Shown in pieces: positions 2,943-19,985 of a DNA stretch of 64,000 nucleotides. The DNA lies in assembly GCA_002441095.1 (NCBI GenBank), contig DJVG01000038.1:5222-69221 (forward strand), read 5' to 3'. Position numbers and translations under genes: made by a program. The DNA is from Elusimicrobia bacterium UBA6262. GTDB taxonomy: Bacteria; CAYTYR01; UBA6262. A model generated the notes under the pieces. The model had not been told where the DNA came from and made no database searches. It was given only the letters and a program-made list of their open reading frames with translations. Positions within the stretch are counted from its first letter, which is position 1; each line of letters opens with the position of its first letter.

Positions 2943-4388
2943 TTGAAGAAACACATTCGACGGATATTACTTTTAGCATTTAGCATTCAGCTTTTAGCAG
3001 CTGTTGTTTTTGCGGCCAATGTCAAAATTGTTGGCCGGCAGATGTTTGTCGATGGGAAGCCGTTCACGGTTAAAGGGGTTAATTACGGTTATACGCCGGT
3101 TGGTTCAGGATATGCTACCTATGACTGGTCAATTCACCCTGAATTCTATAAAGCTGATTTTGCGTTGATCCGGGCGATGGGCGCCAATACCCTGCGCTTA
3201 CACAATTTACCTACCGATGATAAAATGCTGGATGCAGCCTATGAATATGGTTTATATGTGATCATTACGATACCAGTCAGCTGGGTTGATAATCTGGCCA
3301 GCACCGCCGGCCGGGATACAGTGCTGGCTGATGTCACTACGTATGTCACCAGGTGGAAAGACCATCCGGCGATATTGATGTGGTGTATAGGAAACGAGAT
3401 AAATTACTGGAACATCGTAGACAGGCATGCTACCCCTAGATATTCTGATTGGTACAGTCTATTGAATGAGTGCGCCCGTACCGCGCATGAGATCGAAGGA
3501 GCGCATTATCATCCGGTAACCACCGCCGAATCCGAGATCGCTAATCTCGGTACGGCGAGTAACGGTTCAGATGATGCTTCTATGCCTGATCTCGACCTGT
3601 GGGCAGTGCAGGTATATCGGGGGAATACACCTGGTTTTGCCACCATGTTCACTGATTGCCAAGCCAAGAGTGCGAAACCTTTTGTGATTACTGAATTTGG
3701 CTGCGACGCGTATAATACTCGTACCCAGAAGGAGGATCAAACAGCCCAGGCTGATTGCATCCAGGGTATGCTGGATACTTTGCACCTGAACTTATCTGCT
3801 GATAGCCCGGACCGGGCTTTTGTCGGCGGTTGTTTATTCCAGTGGGCTGATGACTGGTCCAAAAACCAGTGGGGTGCGGCAAACAGTACCCATGATACCA
3901 GTGCTACCTGGAATAGCCCGAATTATTATGATTTTGAAGATACAGATACTAATAATATGAATGAGGAATGGTGGGGCTTGTGCGCCATCAGTCCCGGAAC
4001 TGATACCAAAACTCTGCGCCCGGCCTATTACAGGGTGCAGGATAAATGGGCGCCAAACAGCCAGGGCACTGCCGCCAGCAGCAATGTTTTTGCGTCTGAT
4101 ATTACCAACTATCCTAATCCGTTCAATCCTGATAGCGGCACTACCACGATCGCTTTTACCGTAGCGCCGGGAACAGCGGTCAAAGTCAAGATCTACGATA
4201 TAGCCGGCCGGCTGGTCAAAGTGCTGAAAGAAGAAACCATTGAGACCTATGCCCAATACCAGGTAGTCTGGGACGGCAAGGATGATGCCAATACGGCGGT
4301 AGCAAATGGTGTTTATATTTGTTTTGTTGAGGCTAACGGGACCCAGGGTACGGAAGTGAAATACCGCAAGATCCTGGCCTTGAAATAG
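2943..4388 (+). CDS. Secreted clan GH-A (GH2-like TIM barrel) glycoside hydrolase with C-terminal FlgD-Ig/T9SS-type domain
   Basis: Signal peptide; VDGKPFTVKGVNY; acid/base WCIGNEIN; nucleophile PFVITEFG; NMNEEWWG; C-terminal NYPNPFNP...IYDIAGRLV...WDGKD...GVY. Confidence 0.85.
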   Translation: MKKHIRRILLLAFSIQLLAAVVFAANVKIVGRQMFVDGKPFTVKGVNYGYTPVGSGYATYDWSIHPEFYKADFALIRAMGANTLRLHNLPTDDKMLDAAYEYGLYVIITIPVSWVDNLASTAGRDTVLADVTTYVTRWKDHPAILMWCIGNEINYWNIVDRHATPRYSDWYSLLNECARTAHEIEGAHYHPVTTAESEIANLGTASNGSDDASMPDLDLWAVQVYRGNTPGFATMFTDCQAKSAKPFVITEFGCDAYNTRTQKEDQTAQADCIQGMLDTLHLNLSADSPDRAFVGGCLFQWADDWSKNQWGAANSTHDTSATWNSPNYYDFEDTDTNNMNEEWWGLCAISPGTDTKTLRPAYYRVQDKWAPNSQGTAASSNVFASDITNYPNPFNPDSGTTTIAFTVAPGTAVKVKIYDIAGRLVKVLKEETIETYAQYQVVWDGKDDANTAVANGVYICFVEANGTQGTEVKYRKILALK

Positions 4389-4508
4389 AGCTTGCGGGAG
4401 AGCTGTATTTAAGTTATATTTATAGTATAGGGACTATACTTGATTACACAGATTAAAAGCAAATAGGTTCAACCTGCTATATTTGGTCAATTAATGTTCG
4501 GAGGGTGC

Positions 4509-7265
4509 ATGCGTTTTAGCAAGATCATTTTTATGCTTATAATTTTTTTAACGCTGGCGGTTAGCTCAACTCGGGCGGCCGAGCAGCAAAAAGTAAAAAG
4601 CCTGCGCATTGACGGGAATTTGACTTTTGACCTCTTGGCGCATAAACTTCAACCAGGGTGGAGCATCTATTCCAGTAACCTGGCGAAACTCTATACCCAT
4701 GACCTTATTTCCACTGATAAGTGGCATTATGTCGGCGGGCAGACGCTGAATGTGGACTTTTCCTACCGGCCCAGCAAGAACTGGACCATGATGCTGGGCA
4801 TTCTGGCTATCGGCAGCTATGCTGACCGTTTTTATATCCCTATTAATGATGAGCATCGTCTGAAATATAACAACCAGAAGATCAAATGGACCAGAGGAGA
4901 AGTCGCATATAAAGGTGACCGTTTCCAGGCGTCGCTTAACGGCGGGCTGGGCCACTACCATTGGGAAAATGAAGGCGATATGTTCCAGCTCTATCCGGAA
5001 CAATTTGATGTTTATAATTACCGCCGGATCAGCGGCCGGCAAACGCCGCGCGGCCTGGACCTCAAATATGCCGGGGATTTTGGCAAGCTGGAATTAGTGC
5101 ATGGCGCGGAGCTGGTCTGGGGCGACCATACTTCCACATATGGCAAATATAACTGGCGCTGGGGCTATTTCAATAATGCTTTTATTTTCAAAAATGCGCG
5201 TATTTCCTGGGGTGAAAAACCCAAAGAACATTTAAATGCTTACGAACTAACCAGTAAAATTGATATGATCGAATCGGTACCCATTGACTTGGGGATGCTG
5301 TATCAGCCATTCCGCCTGGGCCGGGAATTTCTCTATGTCGAAGAAACAGGCTCCAATAATTCATATACTATCCCCGACAGCACGGCGACCATCAATACCG
5401 GTTCACGGCTGATTAAGTCCGGGACTACCAGTACCAGTGATGCGATCGGCTATAAAACCAAAGTTGGGTTCAGGTTCATTCCAGGGATTGAAGAAGTAAG
5501 CGTTGGTTATGCTCATCTGGGCGCGAGCGCCGGTAATAAGCAAGAATATTCAGGCGGGCTGAAGAAAGAAATTAATGCTTTTACTAACCTGGACTTTACC
5601 GGTATTTACCAAAAACCGATTTACGGCCCTTTACCGTATCTATTCGAAGGAGCGGCAACTGATCCCGGAGCCGGGGTGCTCAGGCCGCGGGCCAGGAATG
5701 ATGCTTTCTGGGTGACTATGGAGAACCGGCAGGCGCATATCTATAAATTAACCCTGAACTTTGACCCTACGCCCAGCAGTTGGTTATACCTGTGGCAGCC
5801 GAATATACTCGAAGAATGGAATATGAATCCCAAGGAAGATGCCACTATCGCCCTGGCTTTCCAGTACCAGGCACGCAAATATCCGACCACGACTGACCGT
5901 TGGTACTACCGGACCCGGGATGATGATATCCTCTGGGAAGGCGAATCAGACCCGACCAAAGAATTCTGGGACTATCGTCCCTGGGGTAAATGGCCTACTG
6001 GCTGGCTGCACAGCTTTAATACTATGATCAGGCTGATACCGGCACCTACCTACAAATACTGGATTAACCTGAAATGGGGACAGGATGTAGCGACCGGGGC
6101 TCTGGCTTATACTCATGATACTGATGAAAATAAGCCCATCACTAATTATTTCCTGGGCACTGTCTGGCTGGATAAGAAACCTTACAAAGCCAGCGCCACC
6201 ATCGGCCGGGATGTCTGGGGCTGGGAAGAGTGGCACCAGCGGTTCGGCGGGACCAATGACCGGTTATATAAGTTTTCTCTCAGCCGGACCTGGGAAAGCG
6301 CGCCTTTTGAATCTACTGACTCTACCTTGGGCGTTGAATATGTCGGGATCCGGGAGAAAGATAACCAATATGTTTATCCCGAGCTGGGCTCCTTTAATGA
6401 ATGGCGGCTTTTCTTTAACCTGCATTTTGGTTCCCTGATGGTCTTCCACAAGGAGGAAGAAAAACCAGTGGTGGTAGAAGAAGGACCAAGCCGGCCTACT
6501 GTCAGCTTGACCGTTATGACGCCGGTATTTACTCCCGGCACGGGTGATAATCCTGAAGCTGTTTTTGCGCTGGCGGCCGCGGATAATAAAGGCCTTAAAT
6601 CCTGGGAGATCAGTATCCTGGATATAAATGACAATCTAATGCAGACTTTATCCGGCAAAGGCCAGCCGCCGCTGGAAAAAGAATGGGATGGCACTGACTT
6701 GGCCAGCAAAGAGACTGCTCCTGAGGGAGATTATAAAGTCATTTTCAAAGTTATAAACATGTCTAACAAATCAGCTAAGACTGATCCGCAGGTAGTGACC
6801 TTGCAAATACCGCAGATCGATATAGCCAAGGAAGTCCTGGCCGAAGCCCCGGTTGAGCTCAGGGAAGAAGAAAGAGGATTGGTGATGAATATCACTTCAG
6901 CCGTATTGTTTGACTTTGATAAATCCAAGCTGAAAGCAGAAGCGCTGCAATTACTGCCTGATGTAGTCAAACTGCTGGCTATGTATCCAAATAATAGAGT
7001 TCTGGTCGAAGGCTACACTGATTCAGTCGGATCCGAAGAATATAACCAGAAATTATCAACCCGCCGGGCGACTAGCGTCTATAACTATTTTATAGAACAG
7101 GGAATTGAGCAGGAACGGCTGGAAAAGAAGGGGTATGGCGAAACAAAACCAGTCGCCTCCAACCGCACTAATGCCGGCCGGACCCTTAACCGCAGGGTAC
7201 AGATCATCCTGCTGAAGGAACCGGAAGAGGAAACAATAGGAAAACCGATGGTGGACCCAGAATGA
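4509..7265 (+). CDS. Large outer-membrane protein: N-terminal putative beta-barrel, FlgD-like Ig domain and C-terminal OmpA peptidoglycan-binding domain
   Basis: ATG 4509 follows the RBS ggaggg; signal peptide; about 620 aa aromatic-rich strand region ending WRLFFNLHFG; then EWDGTD...EGDYKV Ig module; OmpA motifs VLFDFDKSKL, EGYTDSVGSEEYNQKLSTRRA, GYGETKPVASN, NRRVQI. Confidence 0.8.
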   Translation: MRFSKIIFMLIIFLTLAVSSTRAAEQQKVKSLRIDGNLTFDLLAHKLQPGWSIYSSNLAKLYTHDLISTDKWHYVGGQTLNVDFSYRPSKNWTMMLGILAIGSYADRFYIPINDEHRLKYNNQKIKWTRGEVAYKGDRFQASLNGGLGHYHWENEGDMFQLYPEQFDVYNYRRISGRQTPRGLDLKYAGDFGKLELVHGAELVWGDHTSTYGKYNWRWGYFNNAFIFKNARISWGEKPKEHLNAYELTSKIDMIESVPIDLGMLYQPFRLGREFLYVEETGSNNSYTIPDSTATINTGSRLIKSGTTSTSDAIGYKTKVGFRFIPGIEEVSVGYAHLGASAGNKQEYSGGLKKEINAFTNLDFTGIYQKPIYGPLPYLFEGAATDPGAGVLRPRARNDAFWVTMENRQAHIYKLTLNFDPTPSSWLYLWQPNILEEWNMNPKEDATIALAFQYQARKYPTTTDRWYYRTRDDDILWEGESDPTKEFWDYRPWGKWPTGWLHSFNTMIRLIPAPTYKYWINLKWGQDVATGALAYTHDTDENKPITNYFLGTVWLDKKPYKASATIGRDVWGWEEWHQRFGGTNDRLYKFSLSRTWESAPFESTDSTLGVEYVGIREKDNQYVYPELGSFNEWRLFFNLHFGSLMVFHKEEEKPVVVEEGPSRPTVSLTVMTPVFTPGTGDNPEAVFALAAADNKGLKSWEISILDINDNLMQTLSGKGQPPLEKEWDGTDLASKETAPEGDYKVIFKVINMSNKSAKTDPQVVTLQIPQIDIAKEVLAEAPVELREEERGLVMNITSAVLFDFDKSKLKAEALQLLPDVVKLLAMYPNNRVLVEGYTDSVGSEEYNQKLSTRRATSVYNYFIEQGIEQERLEKKGYGETKPVASNRTNAGRTLNRRVQIILLKEPEEETIGKPMVDPE

Positions 7266-7966
7266 AAAAAATAACCTCAGTGAAAATTATAATGATGATC
7301 TTGATGGGAATGTTTCTGGTGTCCTGTGAGAAAAATCCCATCACCCGCTTAACTGATCCGTTTGAGGAGGGAGCGCTGAATACCTGGAGCGGCGTCTTTA
7401 AAATTTATGACGATGACTTGATCACTGGCGGCAATGTGGCTTTTATCCCTTCAGACCTGTCTCCGCCGGATAATAATATGACCCTTGATTTCCTGCATAC
7501 GAGTAATAATCCTCCGGAAGGAAAAAAATGCCTGCGCTTTTCCTGGAATGGCCAGGACCAGGATTGGAACGGCAAGAATGAACATGACTGGGCCGGTATG
7601 AGCCTGATCGTGGCTACTCACTGGTCGCTCTATGATGCGACTCCGAGCAAAGACTTATCTGCCGGCGGCTATACCAAGATCACGTTTAAAGCTACCGCTA
7701 TCATTGATAGTAATACCTATGTGAAATTTGAAGGGCCGATCTCCACGACTACTGCTGCGCCGGCCAGGGGCGGCACCAGGTACCTGCGTTTGAATAGCAC
7801 TGAACTGGGTGATTGGCAATCCTACACTATTAATCTTAGTAACGCTGATTTCAAGTCAGTAAAAGATTATTTTAAAATCGTGATCGAGTATCCTGCCGGG
7901 ATCGGTACTACTTCATACGGTAACGGGGGTATCGTGCTGGTTGATGATATCAGGTATGAACGATAA
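7262..7966 (+). CDS. Lipoprotein with CBM-like beta-sandwich domain
   Basis: Lipobox LVS-C; motifs EGKKCLRFSW, DWAGMS, WQSYTINL and terminal VDDIRYE shared with the downstream paralogues. Confidence 0.7.
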   Translation: MKKITSVKIIMMILMGMFLVSCEKNPITRLTDPFEEGALNTWSGVFKIYDDDLITGGNVAFIPSDLSPPDNNMTLDFLHTSNNPPEGKKCLRFSWNGQDQDWNGKNEHDWAGMSLIVATHWSLYDATPSKDLSAGGYTKITFKATAIIDSNTYVKFEGPISTTTAAPARGGTRYLRLNSTELGDWQSYTINLSNADFKSVKDYFKIVIEYPAGIGTTSYGNGGIVLVDDIRYER

Positions 7967-8012: not shown

Positions 8013-8651
8013 ATGTTCAGCTGCAAGCAGGTATTAAGGATCTTGGTATTAGCTCTGGCCGGAATAATGTTCATGTCCATATCTGCGGTTTCAGCGCGGG
8101 AAGCGGCCACTAATTTTAATTCTCGTACGCCAGGAAATGCGGCCCTGCGGTCGTTGATGCTGCCTGGCTGGGGGCAGTTCTTTAATGAACAGCCAACCAA
8201 GGGTTTTATTTTTGCCGGAGCGGAAATAGTAGCTATTGGGGCTGCTGTCATGATGAATTCCAGCGCTAATAGTGTCTATAGTGATTATGAAACGCAAAGA
8301 ACCCAAACCCTATATAATAGCTATTCCAGTAAAGTTGATACAGCTAATATGTTTGTCTATGCTGCCGCAGCTATTTGGGTCGGCAATGTAATTGATGCCT
8401 ATTTTTCGGCTGATAGCGGGACCAGTACAAAGAGTAAAAAAAGCAGCACCATCAAGAAAAGCACCAAAAAGAAGAAGGTAGTAGAAGAAGAACCGGAAGA
8501 AGAGTATGAGGAAGAAATAGAAGAGGAAGAACCTGCTGAAGAGGAAGAAGAGTATGAAGAAGAAGATGAGTCGAAATTACCGGAAAGAGGCTTTTACCTG
8601 CAAGCTAAAGGATTACACCAGTTAGGAATAGCATACCGCTTTACTTTCTAA
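8013..8651 (+). CDS. DUF5683-like exported/membrane protein with Lys-rich then Glu-rich tract
   Basis: Signal peptide; ALRSLMLPGWGQFFN motif; hydrophobic helices; EEEPEEEYEEEIEEEE tract; ends LGIAYRFTF. Confidence 0.6.
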   Translation: MFSCKQVLRILVLALAGIMFMSISAVSAREAATNFNSRTPGNAALRSLMLPGWGQFFNEQPTKGFIFAGAEIVAIGAAVMMNSSANSVYSDYETQRTQTLYNSYSSKVDTANMFVYAAAAIWVGNVIDAYFSADSGTSTKSKKSSTIKKSTKKKKVVEEEPEEEYEEEIEEEEPAEEEEEYEEEDESKLPERGFYLQAKGLHQLGIAYRFTF

Positions 8652-8679: not shown

Positions 8680-9288
8680 ATGTTCAAGAAAAGCTTATCA
8701 ATACTTGCATTGATCGGGATGAGTATAGGGATATGTATGGTAGTTGCGGCGGCAGCTGCCAGCGGCACTTTTAAGATGTTTCCTGTCTATACTGATGCTA
8801 AATCAGCTGATAATCATTATATCCCCAGCGGCTGGATGGGTGATTATGGTGATCTTAAAGTAAAGGATATGTATGCTGAAAATCCGCACAGCGGGGCTAC
8901 CTGCCTCCAGTGGAAATATAATGCCAAAGGAGCGCAAAATGCCGGCTGGGCCGGGGTATATTGGCAGAATCCGGCGAATAACTGGGGCAGTAAAAAAGGC
9001 GGCTATGAATTAACCGGCGCAAAAAAATTGATATTCTGGGCGCGGGGAGAAAAAGGTGGTGAGATAATTGCTGAAGTAGGGGTTGGCGGCATTACCGGGA
9101 AATATGCCGACACTGACAAGGTAAGTGAGGGTCCAATTAAGCTTTCTAAAGAGTGGAAAAAATATGAGATCAATGTAAGCGAGGCTGACCTGACGTATAT
9201 CAGCGGCGGTTTTTTCTGGGTGGCTAAGGGCGAAGATATGCCTGAGGGCGGCATGACCTTTTATCTTGATGATATCAGGTTTGAGTAA
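8680..9288 (+). CDS. Secreted stand-alone CBM-like protein, paralogue 1
   Basis: Signal peptide; PSGWMGDYGD...WAGVYWQNPANNWG...FWARGEKG...YLDDIRFE. Confidence 0.75.
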   Translation: MFKKSLSILALIGMSIGICMVVAAAAASGTFKMFPVYTDAKSADNHYIPSGWMGDYGDLKVKDMYAENPHSGATCLQWKYNAKGAQNAGWAGVYWQNPANNWGSKKGGYELTGAKKLIFWARGEKGGEIIAEVGVGGITGKYADTDKVSEGPIKLSKEWKKYEINVSEADLTYISGGFFWVAKGEDMPEGGMTFYLDDIRFE

Positions 9289-9318: not shown

Positions 9319-10002
9319 ATGAGAAAAGTAATTCTCATCAGTATTTCAGTGTTAGCAGTGATGGCAGCCAGTTTTTCGGCGATCACTGTGTTTTCGCAAG
9401 GCAAGATTTTCAATGTGCAGGTACCGGTTATTAATGCTGCGCCTATTGGAAAATCCATCAATCCTGATGGGGGGAAGACCGGATTCAAGTCATTCCCTAT
9501 TTACACGGACAAGAATTCCCCGGATAACCATTATGCGCCAAGCGGCTGGATGGGTGATTACGGGGATATGCGCCTGACTGACCGGTGGAGCCAGAATCCG
9601 CACAGCGGCACAACCTGTATCCAATGGAAGTATGTGCCGAGAGGCAGCCAGGGAGCTAACTGGGCCGGGTGTTTCTGGCAGAATCCCGCGAATAACTGGG
9701 GTTCAAAAAAGGGCGGCTATAACCTGACCGGAGCCAAGAAGCTGGTATTCTGGGCCCGCGGCGAAAAAGGCGCGGAAAGACTGGCTGAAGTGGGAGTCGG
9801 CGGCATCGACGGGGAATACTCTGACAGCGACAAGATCAGCATCGGTCCTATTGACCTGACTAAGGAATGGAAAAAGTTCGAGATCGACCTGACCGGAGCG
9901 GATATGAGCTACATTAGCGGCGGTTTTTTCTGGGCAGCCAGCGGTGACGATGTCCCTGAAGAAGGGGTCACGTTCTATCTGGATGATATCAGGTTTGAGT
10001 AA
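9319..10002 (+). CDS. Secreted stand-alone CBM-like protein, paralogue 2
   Basis: Same domain; about 70% identical to paralogue 1 over about 170 aa without gaps (manual count). Confidence 0.75.
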   Translation: MRKVILISISVLAVMAASFSAITVFSQGKIFNVQVPVINAAPIGKSINPDGGKTGFKSFPIYTDKNSPDNHYAPSGWMGDYGDMRLTDRWSQNPHSGTTCIQWKYVPRGSQGANWAGCFWQNPANNWGSKKGGYNLTGAKKLVFWARGEKGAERLAEVGVGGIDGEYSDSDKISIGPIDLTKEWKKFEIDLTGADMSYISGGFFWAASGDDVPEEGVTFYLDDIRFE

Positions 10003-10034: not shown

Positions 10035-10805
10035 ATGAAACTGCGTAAAATAATGATCTGTTTAATGGTCCTGCTGATGGGCGTAGTCATCTTGTCCACA
10101 GCCTCAATTGTGATCGGGGCAGTAATCGAGGATGAGGATGCGGCACCGGTAAAAAAGGCAGCGAAAACTAAAGTAACCCAAAAGAAAGCAGCTGTTGAAG
10201 CAGCTGTTGAGCCGGAGATAGAAGCAGAGGCGGCGAGTGAAAGCCCGTCTGCTCCTGGAGAGAAACCTTCCCGTACGAAGAAAGTCACTGCCTATCCTTT
10301 CTATGTTTACGAGAATGGGGCATCCAAACTCAATCACTTCTATCCGAGCGGCTGGATGGGTGATTACGGTGACTTGAGAGTGAATGTGAAAGAAATGGTC
10401 AATCCGCATTCAGCGCCAAGCTGCGTGAAGATCTCTTATACTGCTAAGGGTAAGAACGGCGCAGGCTGGGCTGGCATCTATTGGCAGCAGCCGGCTAATA
10501 ACTGGGGTACAGCTAATGCCGGGTATAATATTACTGGCGCCAAAAAGCTGACCTTCTGGGCGCGCGGCGCCAAAGGCAATGAAGTGATCAATGAGTTCAA
10601 AGTCGGCGGTATCCAGGGCGAATACGCGGATACAGATGTAGCAGGTATCGGCCCGGTGAAACTGACCACTGCCTGGAAAAAGTATGAGATCGACCTGGCT
10701 GGCAAGGACCTCAGCCGCATAGCCGGTGGTTTCTGCTGGGCAACTTCAGCTGACGAAAATCCAGACGGTTTTGAAATTTTCCTGGATGATATCATGTTTG
10801 AGTAA
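10035..10805 (+). CDS. Secreted CBM-like protein with Ala/Glu/Lys linker, paralogue 3
   Basis: Signal peptide, GAVIEDED then low-complexity linker, same domain ending LDDIMFE. Confidence 0.75.
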   Translation: MKLRKIMICLMVLLMGVVILSTASIVIGAVIEDEDAAPVKKAAKTKVTQKKAAVEAAVEPEIEAEAASESPSAPGEKPSRTKKVTAYPFYVYENGASKLNHFYPSGWMGDYGDLRVNVKEMVNPHSAPSCVKISYTAKGKNGAGWAGIYWQQPANNWGTANAGYNITGAKKLTFWARGAKGNEVINEFKVGGIQGEYADTDVAGIGPVKLTTAWKKYEIDLAGKDLSRIAGGFCWATSADENPDGFEIFLDDIMFE

Positions 10806-11076: not shown

Positions 11077-11841
11077 GTGAAAAAGTACTGTGTGTTCATA
11101 CTTATAGGAATACTCTGCTTTGGCAGCTCAGGTTTGACTGGGGCGGTGATCGAGGAAGATGAAACGCTATTGCCGGAGCTGTCTGATATTATTGAAGACC
11201 AGGATCCTGAAGAAGCGGAAATAAAGGTAAAACCAAAAGCAAAAAGAAAACCAAAAGCAAAATTGAAAGAAGAAGCAGCAGCAGTAGCAGAAACAGAGGT
11301 AGGGAGCAAACCTGAAGCCCCGGTATTTAAGGGGTTTTTAGTATATGAAGACAAGACCACCGGCGGCAATCATTATGCCCCCAGCGGCTGGATGGGCGAT
11401 TATACTGACCTGAAATTGGATTATGGCTATAAGAAGAAACCGCATCAAGGATTAACCTGCATCAGGATAGAATATAATGTCAGGGAATCACAGCGGGCCG
11501 GCTGGGCCGGAATGTTCTGGCAAAATCCCTCAGGCAACTGGGGTGAAAAAAAAGGCGGCTATAATTTGACCGGCGCGGCCAAGCTCACTTTTTGGGCGCG
11601 CGGCGAAAAAGGTAATGAAAAGATCAAAAAGTTCAAGGTAGGCGGTATCAGCGGGACATATCCGGATTCCTGTTCCGTGGATTTTGGACCGGTAGTATTA
11701 GGAAAAAAATGGCGTAAGTACACTATTAACTTGAAAAATAGGGACCTGTCATATATAAACGGCGGTTTTTGCTGGGTAGCTGTCGCTGGCGACAATCCGT
11801 CTGGGATCGTGTTCTACCTGGATGATATTAAATACGAATAA
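11077..11841 (+). CDS. Secreted CBM-like protein with charged linker, paralogue 4
   Basis: GTG start after gagg; signal peptide, GAVIEEDE, Lys/Glu linker, same domain ending LDDIKYE. Confidence 0.75.
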   Translation: MKKYCVFILIGILCFGSSGLTGAVIEEDETLLPELSDIIEDQDPEEAEIKVKPKAKRKPKAKLKEEAAAVAETEVGSKPEAPVFKGFLVYEDKTTGGNHYAPSGWMGDYTDLKLDYGYKKKPHQGLTCIRIEYNVRESQRAGWAGMFWQNPSGNWGEKKGGYNLTGAAKLTFWARGEKGNEKIKKFKVGGISGTYPDSCSVDFGPVVLGKKWRKYTINLKNRDLSYINGGFCWVAVAGDNPSGIVFYLDDIKYE

Positions 11842-11878: not shown

Positions 11879-13177
11879 ATGAAAGTATCCAGAAAAGCCG
11901 CAGTGTTCATGCTCCTGATCGTCTCTCTATCTTCACTCTTTTTTGCCTGCAGTAAAAAAAGCAAGCTGGACCCGCTGCCATCCGGCCCGGCCATTACCAA
12001 TGTGGACAGTATCCCCAGCTCTACCAGCGCTACGATCACCTGGACCACTGACGTGTCAGCCACTTCTAAGGTATATTATGGCACCACCAACAGTTTTGGC
12101 AGTTCCACCACTGAAACTGCCAGTACCACTAAGAACCATTCTGTCAATATTACCGGCTTGGCTGTTAATACTGACTATTATTATTATGTTGCCAGTAAGG
12201 ATGCTGCCAACAATACTTCCACGGCCGGGGAAGATGGCAGTTATATATTTACGACCACAGCGGCTGGCCCGGTAATTTCCGCGGTCACGGATAGCGCCAG
12301 CAGTACCAGCGCCACTATTACCTGGACCACTGACGTGGCAGCAACGACCCAGGTTTTTTATGGTACCACCACCGGGTTTGGCAGCCAGACCACGGAAATT
12401 GATACAGGTACCAATATGAAAACCTCTCACTCAGTGACCTTGACTAGCTTGAGTACCGGCACTAAATACTATTATTATGTGCGCAGCAGGAATGCTGCCG
12501 GCAATGCCACTACTTTAGGGGATGACGGCACCTTGGATTTCACCACTACCAGTACTACTCCTACGGCAGATATGTATCTCATGATCGATGATATCCAGCT
12601 GACCGGGACCACGGGGACTACATTTGATATTTATACTGATGATTTTGGTGCTGTTTTCACCGGAGGCACAAATAATTTAGCTTATATGGGCTCAGCCGCA
12701 GACGGCAGTGCGCCGAATATCAGCGGTGATTCTGAAGCTACCTATACCGGGGATAAACATGCTGGTACAGCTTGTTGGCGTATTCCCATGACCGTCGGGA
12801 CATCCTTAAGTTGGGATGGGATATATGTCTTAGCCACCGGCCTATGGAGAAACCAAATTCCCTCTGACCCCGGGGCTGACCTGTCTGGTCCTACCGGCAC
12901 GGTAACGCTGAGCTGCTATGCCAAAGTTTCCGGCATTACCCAAACCAAGCTTAAGATAGGCATCGGGGACGACAGCGCCTGGACTGATCCTCTAAATATT
13001 GAAAGTTTCGGGACAGTTGGCAACAAGGCTTCATGTAAGAAAGCCAGCGCTATAGGTACTACTATTAGTAATACAACCTGGACCAAGATATCTGTTACTG
13101 TGGGGACAGATCCCGACCTGACAAACATTAATGGCGTATTCTTCTGGTCCATGTCCATGGCTGATGTTACTCCATAA
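11879..13177 (+). CDS. Lipoprotein with two Fn3/purple-acid-phosphatase-N-like repeats and a divergent CBM-like domain
   Basis: ATG 11879 after agggaggg; lipobox FFA-C; two repeats SATITWTTDV.AT..V.YGTT..FG...H.V.(I/L)T.L...T.YYYYV.S.(D/N)AA.N; Thr-rich linkers. Confidence 0.75.
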   Translation: MKVSRKAAVFMLLIVSLSSLFFACSKKSKLDPLPSGPAITNVDSIPSSTSATITWTTDVSATSKVYYGTTNSFGSSTTETASTTKNHSVNITGLAVNTDYYYYVASKDAANNTSTAGEDGSYIFTTTAAGPVISAVTDSASSTSATITWTTDVAATTQVFYGTTTGFGSQTTEIDTGTNMKTSHSVTLTSLSTGTKYYYYVRSRNAAGNATTLGDDGTLDFTTTSTTPTADMYLMIDDIQLTGTTGTTFDIYTDDFGAVFTGGTNNLAYMGSAADGSAPNISGDSEATYTGDKHAGTACWRIPMTVGTSLSWDGIYVLATGLWRNQIPSDPGADLSGPTGTVTLSCYAKVSGITQTKLKIGIGDDSAWTDPLNIESFGTVGNKASCKKASAIGTTISNTTWTKISVTVGTDPDLTNINGVFFWSMSMADVTP

Positions 13178-16100
13178 GAGCAAATACTTAATTGTTCTTT
13201 TTTGCTGTCTAGGCATAACCAGGACAGCCTGGCCGGCAACGGTGGCTATCGGGAAGGGCAGCTATACTACAACGCTGCCCTCTTCTGTACCCAGCAGCAA
13301 ACGCCCGCCGACAGCGCAATATGTCACCAGTAATATTACCGGGCCTGTACCTACAACCAAATGGTATTCATCATTGATCAGTTCTGCGTATTCTTCCTGC
13401 CATTTTGCGTATCCTTTAGCTATGAATGTCACTAATGCGGCAACGTACACTGGCTTGGAGTTTGGCCTGCCGGTCGTGACTGCCCAGGCTGATGGCGTGG
13501 TCGCTCTGCTGGAACAGGACCTGGAAATACGCGGCAATATTGGCGGGCGTTACCTGAAAGCAGACAATGTTAAAGTGGACAGTTACAGTGACTGGACAGT
13601 GTCGCCGTTCTGGCAGGATAACACCAGTACAGAGTATTTCCAGGCCACATATGGCCGCGGCTTACTGTTTATTTACTTAAATTATTCGGCTAACTGTGAT
13701 CCCAGGATCCTGGCAGGAGCTGATTTTGAGCAGGTTTTTGATGAGAATGGTACTGTTGCCGCCGGCACTATCAGCACTGACCATATTGGTGTTAAATATA
13801 AGAATGTATATTACGGCTTGTTTGCGCCGACCGGGTCTACCTTTACTATTACCAATAACCAGGTCAGCGTCGCCCTGCCGGCGGGTTCGAGATATTTTTC
13901 CGTTGGGTTAATGACTAAAAGTGCTGACCTGTCCTACTTTTACCAGCATGCATATGCTTTTGTGACTGATACCCAGGTGTCCTGGGCCTATAATGAAACT
14001 ACCAACGATATAGCCACTACTTTTTCTTTGACTACAGAGTCTAAACAAGGTAATCAGGATACGGCTTTAATTGCCTTGTTGCCGCACCAGTATAAAAATT
14101 CCAGCGAACCGGTTTCCAGCGTCTATACCTACACTACCCTGCTGGGTAAAATGAAATTGCTGGAAGCTAGTACTTTTACGGTGACTAATAAATTTTATGG
14201 TGTTTTGCCTTATTTGCCGGATAAGGGTAGTTATGACAAAACGCACCTGGCAGACTTGTTAGCCAGGGATAAAGATTCCTCGCTGTCCAAGACCGATACT
14301 TATTTTAACGGTAAACAGGTAGCGAAGATAGCTAATTTGATCCCCATCGCTGACCAACTGCAGGATACGGCGACCAGGGACTACCTGGTCAGCCGCCTGA
14401 AGACTGTCCTGGTCAACTGGCTGACCTATTCCTCAGGTGAAACGAACAGGTTTTTCTATTATGATAATATCTGGGGCGGCCTGATCGGTTACGGTGCGGA
14501 ATTTTACGGCTATAATTATACCGACCATCATTTTCATTACGGGTACCTGGTTTATGCTGCGGCTTTATTAAGCCTGTATGACCGCTCTTTCAAAGATGAT
14601 TACGGCCCGATGATAGAATATCTGGTCCGGGATTATGCCAGCTCGAACAGGGATGACACCATGTTCCCGTTCTTGCGTCATTTTGACCCTTACCTGGGAC
14701 ATTCGTATTGTGACGGGTTAGCGCAGTCTGATTATGGCAATAACCAGGAATCTTCATCCGAGGCCATGAATGCCTGGGCCGGCATGATCCTGTGGGGCAT
14801 GGTCACCAATAATGATACTATCCGGGATGCCGGTATTTACGGGTATACCACAGAATACAGCGGTGTTCATGATTATTATTTTGATGTAGATAATGATATC
14901 TTTCCGGCAGAATATGCGCACCGGATCACCGGCATACTGTTTGACGGCAAAATCGAATACACGACCTGGTGGACCGGCGCTGATGAGGCTATCTATGGCA
15001 TCCAGATGATACCCAGTACTGCTTCTATGCTCTACCTGGGATATTATCCGGATTACTGTGAAGACAGCTACGACGCTTTTTTTGCGGACAACGGCGGTTA
15101 TGAGAATTATGATTATTGGTATAATATCCTCTGGCAATTCCAGTGTTTTTATGATCCTGATTTAGCCATCAGCAAGTATAATGAGAATGTTAAGATAGAC
15201 ACTGATGGGGACAGCTTCACTTTTCTCTATCACTGGATCCATAATTTTTTAGAGTTAGGGCAGGTGGATATCAGGGTGCATGCAAATACGCCCTATTATG
15301 CCGTATTTAATAAAGCCGGGACCAGGACTTACCTGGCTTATAATGCCGAAACCGTTATCAAACAAGTTTCTTTCTATGGCCCTGGATATTTGGGCAGTAT
15401 TTATGTAAAACCTGGCAGGATGGCTGCTGCCACGGCTTTTGCCTGCGAGGTGACTGCTGTTACTCCCAGTTCAGCAGCTAATTCAGGCCCAAGCGCTATC
15501 ACCATAGAAGGCGCTGGTTTTCAAAGAGGATTACAGGTTTTCCTGGTCCGGTCAGGGCAGGATGATGTTGCCGCACTCGCGGTAAACTATGTCAGCGCTA
15601 ACAAGATCGCAGCCGAATTTGATTTAACCGGTTTAGCGCCCGGAGATTGGGCTTTGGTGGTAATTAATCCGGGAGGGGATATAGACACGGCCAAGAATAT
15701 GTCGTTTAGTATCACTGGCTATACCCCTACAGTCAGGATGGTTTCACCAAGCCAGGCCAGTAACAAGAACCAGGTCAGGGTCCAGGTTACTGGAACAAAT
15801 TTCTACAACGGGGGTCAAATAAAACTGAGTAGGACCGGCGAGACAGATATTGTGGCTACTGAAAATACCCGCAGTTCAATGACGCAAATTTCCGGTTTGC
15901 TGGATATCCGGAATAAAAAACCGGGCCGGTGGGATGTGGTAGTCACTAACACTGATGATAAGACCGGGACCTATGCCAGCGGCTTTGAAATAACCCAGAG
16001 TGACGCTGTCTATGTTTATCCCAATCCGTGTAAGCTGGCCCAGAACAAAATAGTATATTTTGCCAATATGTCCCACCAGGCGGCAGTAAGTATTTATGAC

Positions 16101-16262
16101 TTAAATGGGGAGCTGGTTTTTTCAGCCAATAATATTTTGGCCAATCCTTACGCCTGGAACCTGAAAAATAATTCAGGGCGGGGGATAGCCAGCGGGATTT
16201 ATATGTATGTGATCCAGGAAGGCGAGACCATAAAAAGAGGCAAGATAGCGTTCATTAAATAA
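13164..16262 (+). CDS. GH81 endo-beta-1,3-glucanase with two IPT/TIG-like Ig domains and C-terminal T9SS/FlgD-type domain
   Basis: GH81 signatures PTTKWYSS, YTDHHFHYGY and NNQESSSEAMNAW. Signal-like N-terminus from ATG 13164. C-terminal VYPNPC...SIYDLNGELV...GIASGIYMY...KIAFIK. Confidence 0.9.
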   Translation: MLLHKSKYLIVLFCCLGITRTAWPATVAIGKGSYTTTLPSSVPSSKRPPTAQYVTSNITGPVPTTKWYSSLISSAYSSCHFAYPLAMNVTNAATYTGLEFGLPVVTAQADGVVALLEQDLEIRGNIGGRYLKADNVKVDSYSDWTVSPFWQDNTSTEYFQATYGRGLLFIYLNYSANCDPRILAGADFEQVFDENGTVAAGTISTDHIGVKYKNVYYGLFAPTGSTFTITNNQVSVALPAGSRYFSVGLMTKSADLSYFYQHAYAFVTDTQVSWAYNETTNDIATTFSLTTESKQGNQDTALIALLPHQYKNSSEPVSSVYTYTTLLGKMKLLEASTFTVTNKFYGVLPYLPDKGSYDKTHLADLLARDKDSSLSKTDTYFNGKQVAKIANLIPIADQLQDTATRDYLVSRLKTVLVNWLTYSSGETNRFFYYDNIWGGLIGYGAEFYGYNYTDHHFHYGYLVYAAALLSLYDRSFKDDYGPMIEYLVRDYASSNRDDTMFPFLRHFDPYLGHSYCDGLAQSDYGNNQESSSEAMNAWAGMILWGMVTNNDTIRDAGIYGYTTEYSGVHDYYFDVDNDIFPAEYAHRITGILFDGKIEYTTWWTGADEAIYGIQMIPSTASMLYLGYYPDYCEDSYDAFFADNGGYENYDYWYNILWQFQCFYDPDLAISKYNENVKIDTDGDSFTFLYHWIHNFLELGQVDIRVHANTPYYAVFNKAGTRTYLAYNAETVIKQVSFYGPGYLGSIYVKPGRMAAATAFACEVTAVTPSSAANSGPSAITIEGAGFQRGLQVFLVRSGQDDVAALAVNYVSANKIAAEFDLTGLAPGDWALVVINPGGDIDTAKNMSFSITGYTPTVRMVSPSQASNKNQVRVQVTGTNFYNGGQIKLSRTGETDIVATENTRSSMTQISGLLDIRNKKPGRWDVVVTNTDDKTGTYASGFEITQSDAVYVYPNPCKLAQNKIVYFANMSHQAAVSIYDLNGELVFSANNILANPYAWNLKNNSGRGIASGIYMYVIQEGETIKRGKIAFIK

Positions 16263-16285: not shown

Positions 16286-17503
16286 TTGAAGAGAGTACCT
16301 GGATTATTGTTTTTGTTGCTGGCCAGTTTATCCCTGGCGGCGGGACTGAATGCCCGGGAACCGCGGGTAAGTATCACCCAGAAAAAAACCGGAGAATATC
16401 AATTACTGGTGGAAGGCAAACCATTTATTGTGCAGGGGGTATGCTATAGCCCTATACCGATCGGGAAGAATTATGAGCATAATTTCTGGGGCGATCCAAG
16501 TAAGCCCTGGATCAATGTGGATGGCCCCATGATGAAGGACCTGGGAGTCAATACGATACGGATATACCAGGAAGGGGAAAGCCCGGCGGAAACCAGGCAG
16601 CTCATCCGGGACCTGTATGAGGAATTCCAGGTACGCACCATTATGACCCATTATCTCGGGTTTTGGTCCTATCCCTCGGCTAACTATGGTGACGAAGATT
16701 TTCAAAAAAGGACGATCAAAGATGTGGAAAGAATGGTTAAAGAGTATAAGGATGAACCGGGAGTCCTGATGTGGTGCCTGGGCAATGAAAATAACTTCTC
16801 TTTCGGGCCGCAAAAAGTAAATCCCTGGACGACTAAAGCGATAGAAGCCTTAGATGATCCTTACAAGAAAAGAATGGCCAAAGCAAAAATATATTACCAG
16901 TTCATTGAAAAAGTAGCTAAAGCCGTTAAGAAGATCGATCCGGACCATCCCATCATGATGGGTAATGGCGATCTGGCTGATGTAGAGATCGCGAAACGCT
17001 ATTGCCCCAATGTTGACGTGCTGGGAGCGACTGTATACCGCGGCAAGTCGTTTGGGAACCTGTTTAAGGAAGTGGAGATCAAATGGGGCAAACCGATAAT
17101 TTTCAGCGAATTTGGCTGTGATTCTTTTGACGCTTTCAAGCAGAAAGAAGACCAGGAAACGCAAGCAGCCTTTATCAGTAACCAATGGACAGAGATCGAA
17201 AAAAATTTACCCGGCAATCCAGCGGGTGTGGGCAACTGCCTGGGTGGCTGTGTGTTTGAGTGGAATGATGAATGGTGGAAAGCAGCTGAAGCAGACTCAT
17301 CCAGCTGGGCAGTCCATGACACTAGCGGGCAATGGTGCCACGGAGCTTACTATTATGATATTAAAGCTCCGGAAGGCATGAATATGAACGAAGAGTGGTG
17401 GGGTATAGTTTCCCTGGACCCGGAACTGGATGAAATGGGCAATAATAAGCGTATACCCAAGAAAGCGTATTATATGTTGCAGGAACTGTGGCTGCAGGAA
17501 TAA
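16286..17503 (+). CDS. Secreted clan GH-A (GH2-like TIM barrel) glycoside hydrolase
   Basis: Signal peptide; VEGKPFIVQGVCY; WCLGNENN; PIIFSEFG; MNEEWWG; no CTD. Confidence 0.85.
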   Translation: MKRVPGLLFLLLASLSLAAGLNAREPRVSITQKKTGEYQLLVEGKPFIVQGVCYSPIPIGKNYEHNFWGDPSKPWINVDGPMMKDLGVNTIRIYQEGESPAETRQLIRDLYEEFQVRTIMTHYLGFWSYPSANYGDEDFQKRTIKDVERMVKEYKDEPGVLMWCLGNENNFSFGPQKVNPWTTKAIEALDDPYKKRMAKAKIYYQFIEKVAKAVKKIDPDHPIMMGNGDLADVEIAKRYCPNVDVLGATVYRGKSFGNLFKEVEIKWGKPIIFSEFGCDSFDAFKQKEDQETQAAFISNQWTEIEKNLPGNPAGVGNCLGGCVFEWNDEWWKAAEADSSSWAVHDTSGQWCHGAYYYDIKAPEGMNMNEEWWGIVSLDPELDEMGNNKRIPKKAYYMLQELWLQE

Positions 17504-17543: not shown

Positions 17544-19484
17544 ATGAAAAAAAGAGTTATGCTGTTACTGCTCCTGGCTGCGATCCTGCTGAGTGCGGCA
17601 GCGGTTTGGGCGCAGGAATCTGCCGGCAGTATTAAGAAACTGAAAGTTGTGCCATCCTGGGAAACACTGGGTAAAGTTTATTTGATGTGGGAGCAAATTG
17701 AAGATACTTTCTATTATAAAGTCTATCGTGACGGGAAAGTTATCGGACGGGCGCGCGACCCTTTTTATGTAGATCAAAAGGCGGCAGCTGGTGCGAAAGC
17801 AGTCTATAAAGTGGTGGCGACTAAGGGCGGCAAGGACGGGGCGTCCAGCGCCGAAATACCGGTAAAACTGCCTGAGACAATTGACTTGCCGCGGGAAAAA
17901 ATAGAATTTCGCGGCGATGATATTTATGTGAACGGGGAAAAATATATAGTGTGCGGTATCGGGTATGCTCCCTACCGTCCGCATACCTCTCCGAACAAAC
18001 CTTATCCCCGCGATTATGAGATCATTGAAAAAGATTTCCAATTAATGAAGAAGATCGGTTTTAATACGATCCGCAACTGGTCAGGCCGGGACCTGGATGA
18101 GTATATGATGGAACTGGCACATAAGTATGGGCTCCTGATCATCCAGGGCATGAGTATCTGGGTGCCGCCCATGGCAGATTTTTCAGATAAGAGTTTCTGG
18201 GATAATTCCATGACTACGGTAGAAGATGAAATGAAGATAAACCGTGAGCATGGGAATATCATCGGGTATCTGCTGATGAATGAGCCGCCTCCGGGCAAGA
18301 TCGCCCAGGCCAGTTTAGCCAAGACCAATGAGTTTTATGACCTGATTACCGCTAAGATCAAGGAGTTGCAGCCGGGAGCCTATGTATCTTTAGCTAATTG
18401 GCCCCGTGCTGATATGTTAAGTACTAAAAATTGGGATTTTATTTGTATCAACCATTATGGCTATGATAAATCCCATGTCGTCAATATGGGTTATCGCGGG
18501 TATCTTGGCTGGATGGAAAGAATATTAGCTAAAGATAAACCGCTGATCGGTACCGAGTATGGCTACAGCATGTCCAAGCGCGGCGAAGGAAAATTCGGGT
18601 ATGGCGGCAATACTGAAGAGGAACAGGCCATCGGCATTGTTAATGATACCTACGCCATGATCGCGGAAAAAGGTAACGGCGCCTGCATTTTCTCCTGGAT
18701 CGATGAGTGGTGGAAAAATAATGAAGGGGAAGGCGATGAAGACCGGCATGAAGAAACTGAGCCAGAAGAATGGTTTGGTATAGTAGCCATGCCGGATGAT
18801 AAGAACCTGGCTGGAGTACCGCGCCAGGCCGCCGTTGCCATGGAAAAATTCTATGAAGCCCTGATCATCTCTCCCCGCGATGCTAATAAGGTCCAGGGTA
18901 CAATCCCAGTGGAAGTCTATACCAAAACCTCACTTTTTCCTAACCTGGCCAAAGTCGAATATTCAATTGATGGCAGTAACTGGGTAGAATTATCCAATAC
19001 CGCTAATTGGTGGCGGGCGGAAATGGATACGACATCCTTAAATGACGGTAAATATGATCTGAAGGTCCGCTATACCACTAAAGCCGGCAAAGAAACTGTG
19101 GCCAGCCAGCCATTGGCCTTATATGTAGTAAACAATGAAAAGATCAGCCAGCAGGAACTGGTGATCAGTACTGATAAGGCAGTCTATAAAAATGGCGATA
19201 CCGTGATCCTGACTATAAAATACAGTGAAAACAGCAAGCCTGCTGTTAACAAAGCGGTATCTTATGCGGTAACCCAAATTGGCACCATCACTGCTTCTTG
19301 CCGTAATCTGGCTGGAGCAGAGCTGCTTACTAATAATCAAGGGATAGTTAAGGCTTCTTATGTAGTGAAAGATGAAGACCGGCCGCATTTCCTGACTATC
19401 TCCGCAGCTGTCCCCAGTGAGCAAGTAGTTGGACAAAAATTTGCCACCAGAATAGTCGTGGAAGTGAACCAGGTCCAGAAATAA
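17544..19484 (+). CDS. Secreted clan GH-A glycoside hydrolase with N-terminal Fn3-like and C-terminal Ig-like domains
   Basis: Signal peptide; YKVYRDG Fn3 motif; YLLMNEPP; PLIGTEYG; EEWFGIV; DTTSLNDGKYDLKV Ig-like module. Confidence 0.8.
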   Translation: MKKRVMLLLLLAAILLSAAAVWAQESAGSIKKLKVVPSWETLGKVYLMWEQIEDTFYYKVYRDGKVIGRARDPFYVDQKAAAGAKAVYKVVATKGGKDGASSAEIPVKLPETIDLPREKIEFRGDDIYVNGEKYIVCGIGYAPYRPHTSPNKPYPRDYEIIEKDFQLMKKIGFNTIRNWSGRDLDEYMMELAHKYGLLIIQGMSIWVPPMADFSDKSFWDNSMTTVEDEMKINREHGNIIGYLLMNEPPPGKIAQASLAKTNEFYDLITAKIKELQPGAYVSLANWPRADMLSTKNWDFICINHYGYDKSHVVNMGYRGYLGWMERILAKDKPLIGTEYGYSMSKRGEGKFGYGGNTEEEQAIGIVNDTYAMIAEKGNGACIFSWIDEWWKNNEGEGDEDRHEETEPEEWFGIVAMPDDKNLAGVPRQAAVAMEKFYEALIISPRDANKVQGTIPVEVYTKTSLFPNLAKVEYSIDGSNWVELSNTANWWRAEMDTTSLNDGKYDLKVRYTTKAGKETVASQPLALYVVNNEKISQQELVISTDKAVYKNGDTVILTIKYSENSKPAVNKAVSYAVTQIGTITASCRNLAGAELLTNNQGIVKASYVVKDEDRPHFLTISAAVPSEQVVGQKFATRIVVEVNQVQK

Positions 19485-19949: not shown

Positions 19950-19985
19950 CCTGCCCCGATTATGTCGGGGCAGGTCTTTTTTATT
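19950..19985 (+). terminator. Rho-independent terminator after cspA
   Basis: 10-bp stem cctgccccga/tcggggcagg followed by tcttttttattt. Confidence 0.85.

Follow-up and report, generated by a model that had tools for sequence, protein, structure and literature searches.

The window analysed here, a stretch of 64,000 nucleotides from Elusimicrobia bacterium UBA6262 (contig DJVG01000038.1, positions 5,222 to 69,221 of the forward strand), carries a gene at 4509-7265 that encodes an outer membrane protein with a signal peptide, a beta-barrel of about 615 residues, an Ig-like domain and an OmpA-type domain. The barrel and the glycoside hydrolase (GH) encoded just upstream, at 2943-4388, match the two halves of a single glucanase-barrel protein that is found in at least ten phyla. 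Both genes belong to a cluster that lies between a promoter-like site (1676-1704) and a strong terminator (19950-19974) and that encodes, in this order, a PorV-family barrel, the hydrolase, the target, a lipoprotein, a DUF5683 protein, four paralogues, an fn3-rich protein, a GH81 protein and two GH-A proteins.

The target is read on the + strand from the ATG at 4509 to the stop codon at 7265, giving 918 amino acids, and GGAGGG is found upstream at 4500-4505. An alternative in-frame ATG at 4494 is the mechanical start in the list of open reading frames (ORFs; 4494-7265); the start at 4509 is preferred because the homologues measure 917-927 amino acids. The protein is divided as follows:

4509-4580, + strand: Sec signal peptide, MRFSKIIFMLIIFLTLAVSSTRA/AE, read off the translation
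4593-6443, + strand: outer membrane beta-barrel domain, residues 29-645, with 27-28 strands, from AlphaFold2 (AF2), Foldseek, coevolution and homology to the fused proteins
6501-6794, + strand: Ig-like domain of the FlgD_ig type, E=0.013 in this copy
6876-7223, + strand: OmpA-like peptidoglycan-binding domain, from Pfam and many NCBIfam models

A word-indexed protein search with the target returned 33 relatives, and those with names are proteins from Elusimicrobia, Endomicrobiales or Endomicrobiia metagenome-assembled genomes. Some of them consist of the barrel only (about 617 amino acids) and some of the barrel followed by the Ig-like domain. The OmpA domain is present in 23 of the 33 and missing from the other ten.

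At threshold, Pfam and NCBIfam recognise nothing in the target except the C-terminal OmpA-like domain. This domain scores 83.7 bits with PF00691 (OmpA) against a cut-off of 27.2, over residues 800-895, and many NCBIfam models of the OmpA/Pal/MotB type match residues 775-905. The conserved Asp/Arg motif of the family (TD...R), whose Asp and Arg residues contact peptidoglycan in OmpA-like domains, is present at residues 837-854 as TDSVGSEEYNQKLSTRRA. FlgD_ig stays below the threshold in the target (E=0.013) and matches 15 of the 33 relatives at E<0.01; the Ig-like domain is presumably a periplasmic spacer. In the AF2 model residues 2-18 are helical and are followed by a low-confidence stretch.

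The OmpA domain and the FlgD-like Ig domain had both been named in the original prediction, which was made from the sequence alone, and both are borne out, the latter with a sub-threshold match in the target itself. The motifs quoted there are also all present: GHYHWENEGDMFQLYPE at residues 148-164, YQKPIYGP at 367-374, FDPTPSSW at 418-425, NEWR at 630-633 and WRLFFNLHFG at 632-641, the last of which forms the final, beta-signal-like strand of the barrel. The NMNEEWxG motif reported for the adjacent gene is found as NMNEEWWG at residues 338-345 of the 2943-4388 product.

An exhaustive profile search with an alignment of the barrel only returned 229 relatives. Many of these are 1020-1130 amino acids long (the fused proteins measure about 1000-1130 amino acids), with the barrel match in the C-terminal half, and Glyco_hydro_2_C was found in the N-terminal half of eight of the nine fused relatives scanned. 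Two of these clusters are named, one as a Spirochaetia 'hypothetical protein' and the other as a Spirochaetota 'glycoside hydrolase family 2 TIM barrel-domain containing protein'. Comparisons with the fused glucanase-barrel protein P0107, used as the reference, and between the two families gave the following matches:

Hydrolase of the window (2943-4388) against residues 75-431 of P0107: BLASTP, 27% identity, E=1e-39, including NNMNEEWWG
Barrel of the window against residues 502-1069 of P0107: BLASTP, E=2e-25
Split family against fused family (alignment A4): hhalign, probability 100%, E=1.3e-57, 491 columns

The glucanase is not part of the target polypeptide and is encoded by the separate upstream gene, 120 nucleotides away. 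Because these neighbours match the two halves of one protein, what is a fusion elsewhere is present as two adjacent genes in this lineage, which is annotated as Elusimicrobiota. A hydrolase-barrel pair that is fused in some taxa and split in this one had been proposed in the original prediction, and it is upheld by BLASTP, by which both adjacent genes map to the halves of P0107, by the hhalign comparison (E=1.3e-57) and by the order of hydrolase and then barrel that is kept in the split lineage. The proposal that the motifs resemble the C-terminal region of large Flavobacterial 'GH2 TIM barrel' proteins was right about the homology of that region to the barrel; the proteins are not particularly flavobacterial and belong to many phyla.

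A genome scan with one genome per species located the fused gene in at least 598 loci. They are found, among others, in Gammaproteobacteria (Woeseiaceae, Thiothrix, Leucothrix), Cloacimonadota, Gemmatimonadota, Myxococcota (including complete Corallococcus and Myxococcus genomes), Spirochaetota, Fibrobacterota, Latescibacterota, Ignavibacteriales, Krumholzibacteriota and a few Bacteroidota, which contribute just a few of the best 80 fused loci.

The linker between the two halves of P0107 (residues 432-500, about 70 amino acids) is poorly conserved and, judged by eye from its sequence, rich in helix. The profile alignment begins at residue 69 of the window protein, so that the first strands of the target have no clear counterpart in the fused family. 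The fused proteins inspected start with a Sec signal peptide, and in most of them the last residue is aromatic, commonly Phe, as is expected for a barrel whose last strand forms the C-terminus. Since the fused proteins stop at this strand and ten of the 33 split-family members lack the OmpA domain, the Ig-like and OmpA domains are best seen as an addition within the split lineage.

The barrel was modelled with AF2 on residues 1-654 of the target, with the set of 33 relatives as the alignment. The model has a pLDDT (predicted local distance difference test) of 84.8 and a pTM (predicted template modelling score) of 0.80, and residues 31 to 645 form 27-28 long strands in it. Foldseek against the PDB gave hundreds of matches, solely to large outer membrane barrels, with template modelling (TM) scores of 0.2-0.39 and 7-10% identity; they include the TonB-dependent BtuB, Cir, PfeA and SusC, the FimD/PapC ushers, MtrB, LptD and OccK/ChiP. 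The model and its matches thus agree with the earlier claim of a large membrane barrel. Assignment to a named family by Foldseek was dropped, the similarity being generic. No Pfam or NCBIfam family matches the barrel part, and a profile search of PDB sequences with the barrel gave no match; together with the generic Foldseek result, this leaves the barrel family with no solved or curated relative.

Named families of outer membrane proteins were considered one by one. No plug, TonB-dependent receptor or porin family matches any of the 33 split-family members, in line with the absence of a plug noted in the original prediction (33/33 with no Plug or TonB-receptor match), and TonB-dependent transporter structures reach TM scores of only 0.33-0.39 against the model. 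The sugar-specific porin families (LamB, OprB, OprD/ChiP, KdgM) gave no Pfam or NCBIfam match, with query-normalised TM scores of at most 0.29 in Foldseek. The Autotransporter family, a twelve-stranded type Va barrel, has no match in the family, whose barrel has 27-28 strands, and OmpA_membrane, the eight-stranded barrel of OmpA, has none in the target, where a barrel of about 615 residues is found instead. Nor do PorV/PorQ and PorP/SprF match the target; the PorV/PorQ match in the window belongs to the separate gene at 1737-2879.

Coevolution was analysed by mean-field direct coupling analysis on a MAFFT alignment of 202 barrel sequences (effective number of sequences, Neff, 162). Many pairings of adjacent strands in the model were recovered independently, for example with z = 12.6, 8.3, 6.8 and 6.1 relative to non-adjacent pairs, and residues 359-369 pair directly with 409-418. 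There was no coupling signal for the pairing of the first strand with the last that would close the barrel, so that coevolution favours neither side for the N-terminus. DSSP counts 27 strands if residues 51-56 and 59-64 are one bulged strand, and 28 if they form a tight hairpin; the putative turn is at N57, a position occupied by Gly in most homologues. An even count would place the N-terminus, and with it a fused enzyme, in the periplasm, and an odd count would place it outside. We know of no bacterial barrel with an odd strand count and an external N-terminus.

Conservation peaks in the long loops on one face of the barrel (0.6-0.82), and the short turns on the opposite face are variable (0.28-0.48). 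The conserved long loops contain the motifs PINDEHRL, GHYHW..EGD.F.LYPE, QPFRL, AGNK, KP..GP.P, PR...DPFWV, FDPTP..W, YPTTTDR and WGPEEW, and the same loop motifs are common to the split and the fused families. Conserved loops of the barrel span residues 104-124, 146-180, 370-408, 419-446 and 459-496. Aromatic and acidic side chains are frequent among the conserved residues of the barrel. That the loops are conserved across phyla suggests that the barrel has a function beyond anchoring.

The partner of the barrel in the window is encoded by the following gene:

2943-4388, + strand: glycoside hydrolase partner with a TIM barrel of clan GH-A, closest to GH158 and GH2, from Pfam, PDB and BLASTP

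Pfam finds Glyco_hydro_2_C and FlgD_ig in its product, which has catalytic-type motifs (GNE at residues 150-152 and TEFG at 250-253) and a C-terminal Ig-like domain. Compared with the PDB, the window hydrolase matches GH158 at 1.2e-7 over residues 75-255, and GH2 catalytic domains score similarly or better; the nearest solved relatives of the N-terminal domain of the fused family are GH158 (9oro, 2.8e-10, and 6pal, 1.8e-9). [quoted passage not shown] Judged by its motifs, the 2943-4388 product looks catalytically competent, with an architecture like that of BuGH158. Its C-terminal domain (4095-4385) passes TIGR04183, a type IX secretion system (T9SS)-type model, and this tail may be the Ig domain typical of GH158. 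The Ig domains of the hydrolase and the target are not close paralogues (BLASTP E=0.033).

The genomic surroundings were compared between nine loci of the split family and the best 80 of the at least 598 fused loci; loci are referred to by L-numbers. In the split family a GH2_C-like gene lies directly upstream of the barrel in seven of the nine loci. In one more GH81 comes in between and the GH2_C-like gene is the second one upstream, so that eight of nine have it within two genes. Genes for an ATP-binding cassette (ABC) sugar-binding protein and permeases recur in the Elusimicrobiota loci. GH161 phosphorylase genes are found at L087:2619-5870, L004:2968-6225 and L006:1413-4625, with E=1e-226 to solved GH161. 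In the fused loci GH149 beta-1,3-oligosaccharide phosphorylases are found, for example at L078:15520-18987 (E=0 to 6HQ6). The GH161/GH149 proteins of L087, L004, L006 and L078 are large and have no Pfam match; neither phosphorylase was found in the window. In the ninth split locus, L001, type IV pilus genes precede the barrel (L001:4549-9960; two T2SSE ATPases, T2SSF, a pilin and a prepilin peptidase). Around the fused genes, the following neighbours were counted:

GH16: 55/80
GH17-like: 29/80
GH30: 20/80
MFS_2 (major facilitator superfamily, MFS): 30/80
GH149 beta-1,3-oligosaccharide phosphorylase: 30/80

Sugar importers and regulators of the LacI or hybrid two-component system (HTCS) type are also found in these neighbourhoods. 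In the Bacteroidota locus L078 the fused gene and a gene weakly similar to surface glycan-binding proteins (SGBPs) lie between an HTCS-type regulator and GH16, and no SusC/SusD-type genes were found among the L078 ORFs scanned. The three fully annotated clusters (the window, L017 of Cloacimonadales and L078) contain no gene for a TonB-dependent transporter, and no glycosyltransferases were found in the Pfam-annotated neighbourhoods. In at least 49 of the 80 loci the gene directly 3' of the fused one encodes a helix-rich lipoprotein of about 200 amino acids (L017:13030-13641, with equivalents in L007-L075), and the lipoprotein is probably an obligate partner of the fused protein; as a partner in the Elusimicrobiota loci it was rejected, since no homologue is found there.

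With GH81 in the window, and with GH16, GH17, GH30 and GH149/GH161 near the homologues, the beta-glucan context assumed at the outset holds: the split and fused forms both lie in beta-1,3-glucan catabolic loci. The other genes in and next to the cluster of the window are:

332-1483, + strand: ABC sugar-type permease, Pfam BPD_transp_1
1737-2879, + strand: PorV/PorQ-family barrel of the 14-strand type, first gene of the cluster, NCBIfam NF033709 with 153 bits (cut-off 90)
7262-7966, + strand: lipoprotein with the lipobox LVSC, a divergent member of the carbohydrate-binding module (CBM)-fold family, from the translation and hhalign
8013-8651, + strand: DUF5683 membrane protein that carries a long, acidic tail of low complexity, Pfam DUF5683
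8680-9288, 9319-10002, 10035-10805 and 11077-11841, + strand: four tandem paralogues with an unannotated CBM-fold domain of about 170 amino acids
11822-13177: lipoprotein-like protein with fn3/purple-acid-phosphatase-N repeats, inside the cluster
13131-16262, + strand: GH81 protein with a T9SS-type C-terminal domain, Glyco_hydro81C 207.9 bits, Por_Secre_tail, CHU_C
16286-17503 and 17544-19484, + strand: two more GH2_C/GH158-like TIM-barrel genes, from Pfam

GH81 enzymes are endo-beta-1,3-glucanases. The gene at 16286-17503 matches the hydrolase half in all 80 fused loci (tblastn). A set of a sugar-binding protein and two permeases recurs upstream in the related loci L002, L003, L006 and L088. 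The start of the lipoprotein gene 7262-7966 overlaps the target stop by 4 nucleotides, and L001-L004 and L006 have homologues of the lipoprotein encoded downstream of the barrel; the DUF5683 gene is kept downstream of the barrel in L001, L004, L006 and L087. The PorV-family gene was rejected as a part of the conserved module, as tblastn gave no match in any related locus. The genome with this PorV/PorQ-family barrel and the T9SS-type domains on two glycosidases has relatives annotated as Elusimicrobiota, and the T9SS has been described in one paper as unique to Bacteroidetes.

The family of the four paralogues has the motifs HYxPSGWMGDYGD, WQNPANNWG and FYLDDIRFE and is represented by at least 1917 clusters of the protein collection, all 'hypothetical', with no Pfam family; named members come from Omnitrophota, Eisenbacteria and Spirochaetes. 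The AF2 model of the domain has a pLDDT of 91.9, and its best Foldseek matches are the beta-jelly-roll modules CBM30, CBM8, CBM29, CBM11, CBM22 and CBM4. It is likely a new carbohydrate-binding module family. The lipoprotein 7262-7966 is related to it (hhalign probability 98.5%, E=2.7e-15), and the Elusimicrobiota loci, as well as 19 of the 80 fused loci, have CBM-fold genes next to the barrel. Just past the cluster lies an SBBP beta-propeller repeat protein (20057-21646), and the region 21964-44152 encodes SecA, apolipoprotein N-acyltransferase (Lnt), a release factor, an extracytoplasmic function (ECF) sigma factor, a Clp-type AAA ATPase, TamB and BamA. These housekeeping genes for envelope and secretion functions confirm a diderm organism with a BAM pathway.

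Taken as a whole, the locus is probably best explained as a split, glucanase-linked outer membrane barrel with a putative role in the passage of beta-1,3-glucan oligosaccharides. The barrel would then be a TonB-independent passage through the outer membrane for oligosaccharides of the laminarin type, lined by the conserved aromatic- and acid-rich loops. The CBM-fold proteins encoded just downstream would capture the glucan as surface binders, and GH81 and the GH158-like partner would cleave it. An ABC or MFS transporter would import the oligosaccharides into the cell, where cytoplasmic phosphorylases may process them. The Ig-like and OmpA domains would tether the barrel to the cell wall as a lineage-specific addition. 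The glucanase would stay coupled to the barrel in both forms, covalently in most phyla and presumably non-covalently in the split lineage.

Some observations weigh against this explanation. One of the nine split loci, L001, has the barrel and CBM-like genes with no adjacent hydrolase, and the absence of a TonB-dependent transporter holds for the three loci checked. With a strand count of either 27 or 28, the N-terminus, and with it a fused glucanase, could lie on either side of the membrane. The conserved loops could also be a plug or an enzyme-docking surface instead of a slide for sugars.

The main rival is that the barrel chiefly anchors the glucanase at the surface or translocates it there, like the barrel of an autotransporter with its passenger or a PorP-like barrel with type-B cargo of the T9SS, while the sugars enter by another route. 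The fusion order, with the enzyme N-terminal and the barrel C-terminal, is that of type Va autotransporters, and the linker of about 70 residues between the fused domains is helix-rich by the look of its sequence. The reading with 27 strands would place the N-terminus of the barrel outside, and a surface location is also predicted for BuGH158 (PMC7157763). However, the barrel far exceeds known anchor barrels in size, its loops are its most conserved part across phyla, and no other outer membrane importer is encoded in the three loci examined. The tail of the split hydrolase, which passes TIGR04183, and the PorV-family gene next to it would fit secretion by a T9SS, but the tail may be simply the typical Ig domain of GH158, and a similar Ig domain of the FlgD_ig/CHU_C type sits between the barrel and the OmpA domain of the target, where it is necessarily periplasmic. 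A PorV-like gene is moreover missing from all related loci by tblastn. We regard display or secretion of the enzyme as an unlikely main role of the barrel, though one that deserves to be kept in mind.

It is very improbable that the target is a general envelope protein, that is, a lineage-specific major tether or general porin like OmpA whose position in a glycan locus is incidental. The C-terminal OmpA domain and the locus L001, which lacks an adjacent hydrolase, would be expected of such a protein, but ten of the 33 family members have no OmpA domain, the fused proteins end at the last strand of the barrel, and the linkage to hydrolase and CBM-like genes persists across phyla. Least probable is an export porin that secretes a self-made beta-glucan together with a periplasmic hydrolase, as in PgaA/PgaB, BcsC/BcsZ and AlgE/AlgL: such pairs are typical of synthase-dependent exopolysaccharide systems, and a conventional even-stranded topology would put the fused hydrolase in the periplasm, but the neighbours are catabolic (GH16, GH17, GH30, GH81, GH149/GH161, sugar importers, LacI- and HTCS-type regulators), with neither a glycosyltransferase in the Pfam-annotated neighbourhoods nor a tetratricopeptide repeat (TPR) scaffold.

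The proposed passage of beta-1,3-glucan oligosaccharides through a glucanase-linked barrel has counterparts in several known systems. In the SusC/SusD utilisome of Bacteroidota one locus likewise encodes an outer membrane barrel, glycan binders and an endo-glucanase for one polysaccharide. The barrel here differs in that it has no plug, TonB-dependent receptor domain or SusD, is unrelated in sequence and is covalently fused to the enzyme in most phyla. LamB maltoporin, ChiP chitoporin, OprB and CymA have the role proposed here, TonB-independent passage of oligosaccharides, and the aromatic and acidic conserved residues are a further likeness; in contrast, there is no sequence match to these sugar porins, ChiP/OccK reach TM scores of only 0.2-0.29, about 27-28 strands are found here against 14-18, and the barrel is linked to an enzyme and an OmpA domain. 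OmpA and OprF also have an outer membrane barrel followed by a C-terminal OmpA-like peptidoglycan-binding domain, but their barrel is eight-stranded against about 615 residues here, an Ig-like domain is inserted here, and the OmpA domain is optional in this family.

On the side of the enzyme, the partner and the N-terminal half of the fused proteins share the clan GH-A TIM barrel and the NE and TEFG-type motifs with BuGH158 (PDB 6PAL), and both GH158 and the split-form hydrolase have a C-terminal Ig-like domain, although the two are distant relatives (E about 1e-7 to 1e-10 and partial coverage). PgaA/PgaB and BcsC/BcsZ also couple an outer membrane barrel functionally to a glycoside hydrolase that acts on the same polymer, but they serve export, with synthases and TPR scaffolds, whereas the context here is catabolic. 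Myxococcota, a phylum that also carries the fused gene, has a glucanase-active outer membrane protein of the barrel type, GluM, which we take to be Oar/TonB-receptor-like and so probably of a different family from the barrel here. In the passage of PMC10800785 that cites Li et al. 2019, GluM is described as an outer membrane beta-barrel beta-1,6-glucanase of Corallococcus. Full-text searches of the literature found no description of the barrel family or of a GH158-barrel fusion, and the passage on a 'transporter-CAZyme fusion' (carbohydrate-active enzyme) in PMC6246565 concerns other proteins and not this barrel.

The apparatus is of a known kind, an outer membrane system for glycan uptake with a barrel, binders and a glycosidase. 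What is new is the barrel family, the covalent coupling to an enzyme, the proposed TonB independence and the split, OmpA-tethered form. Possibly, and here we are more doubtful than convinced, the GH158-like/barrel module is a third general route for polysaccharides across the outer membrane, wide and TonB-independent, beside the TonB-dependent transporters of the SusCD type and the small specific porins. A barrel physically coupled to an endo-glucanase would link the passage of a chain with its cleavage, and the module would have its own new carbohydrate-binding family; in a sub-case with an odd number of strands, the enzyme would be outside the cell.

In the sea and in soils, laminarin and the other beta-1,3-glucans rank with the largest fluxes of carbon, and outside Bacteroidota the passage of beta-1,3-glucan chains through the outer membrane is poorly understood. 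The barrel is a candidate for this missing step because at least 598 species-level genomes from many phyla encode it in fusion with a glucanase and the three fully annotated loci have no gene for a TonB-dependent transporter nearby. The split, OmpA-tethered version indicates that glucanase and barrel can each function as a protein of their own, which helps expression and reconstitution.

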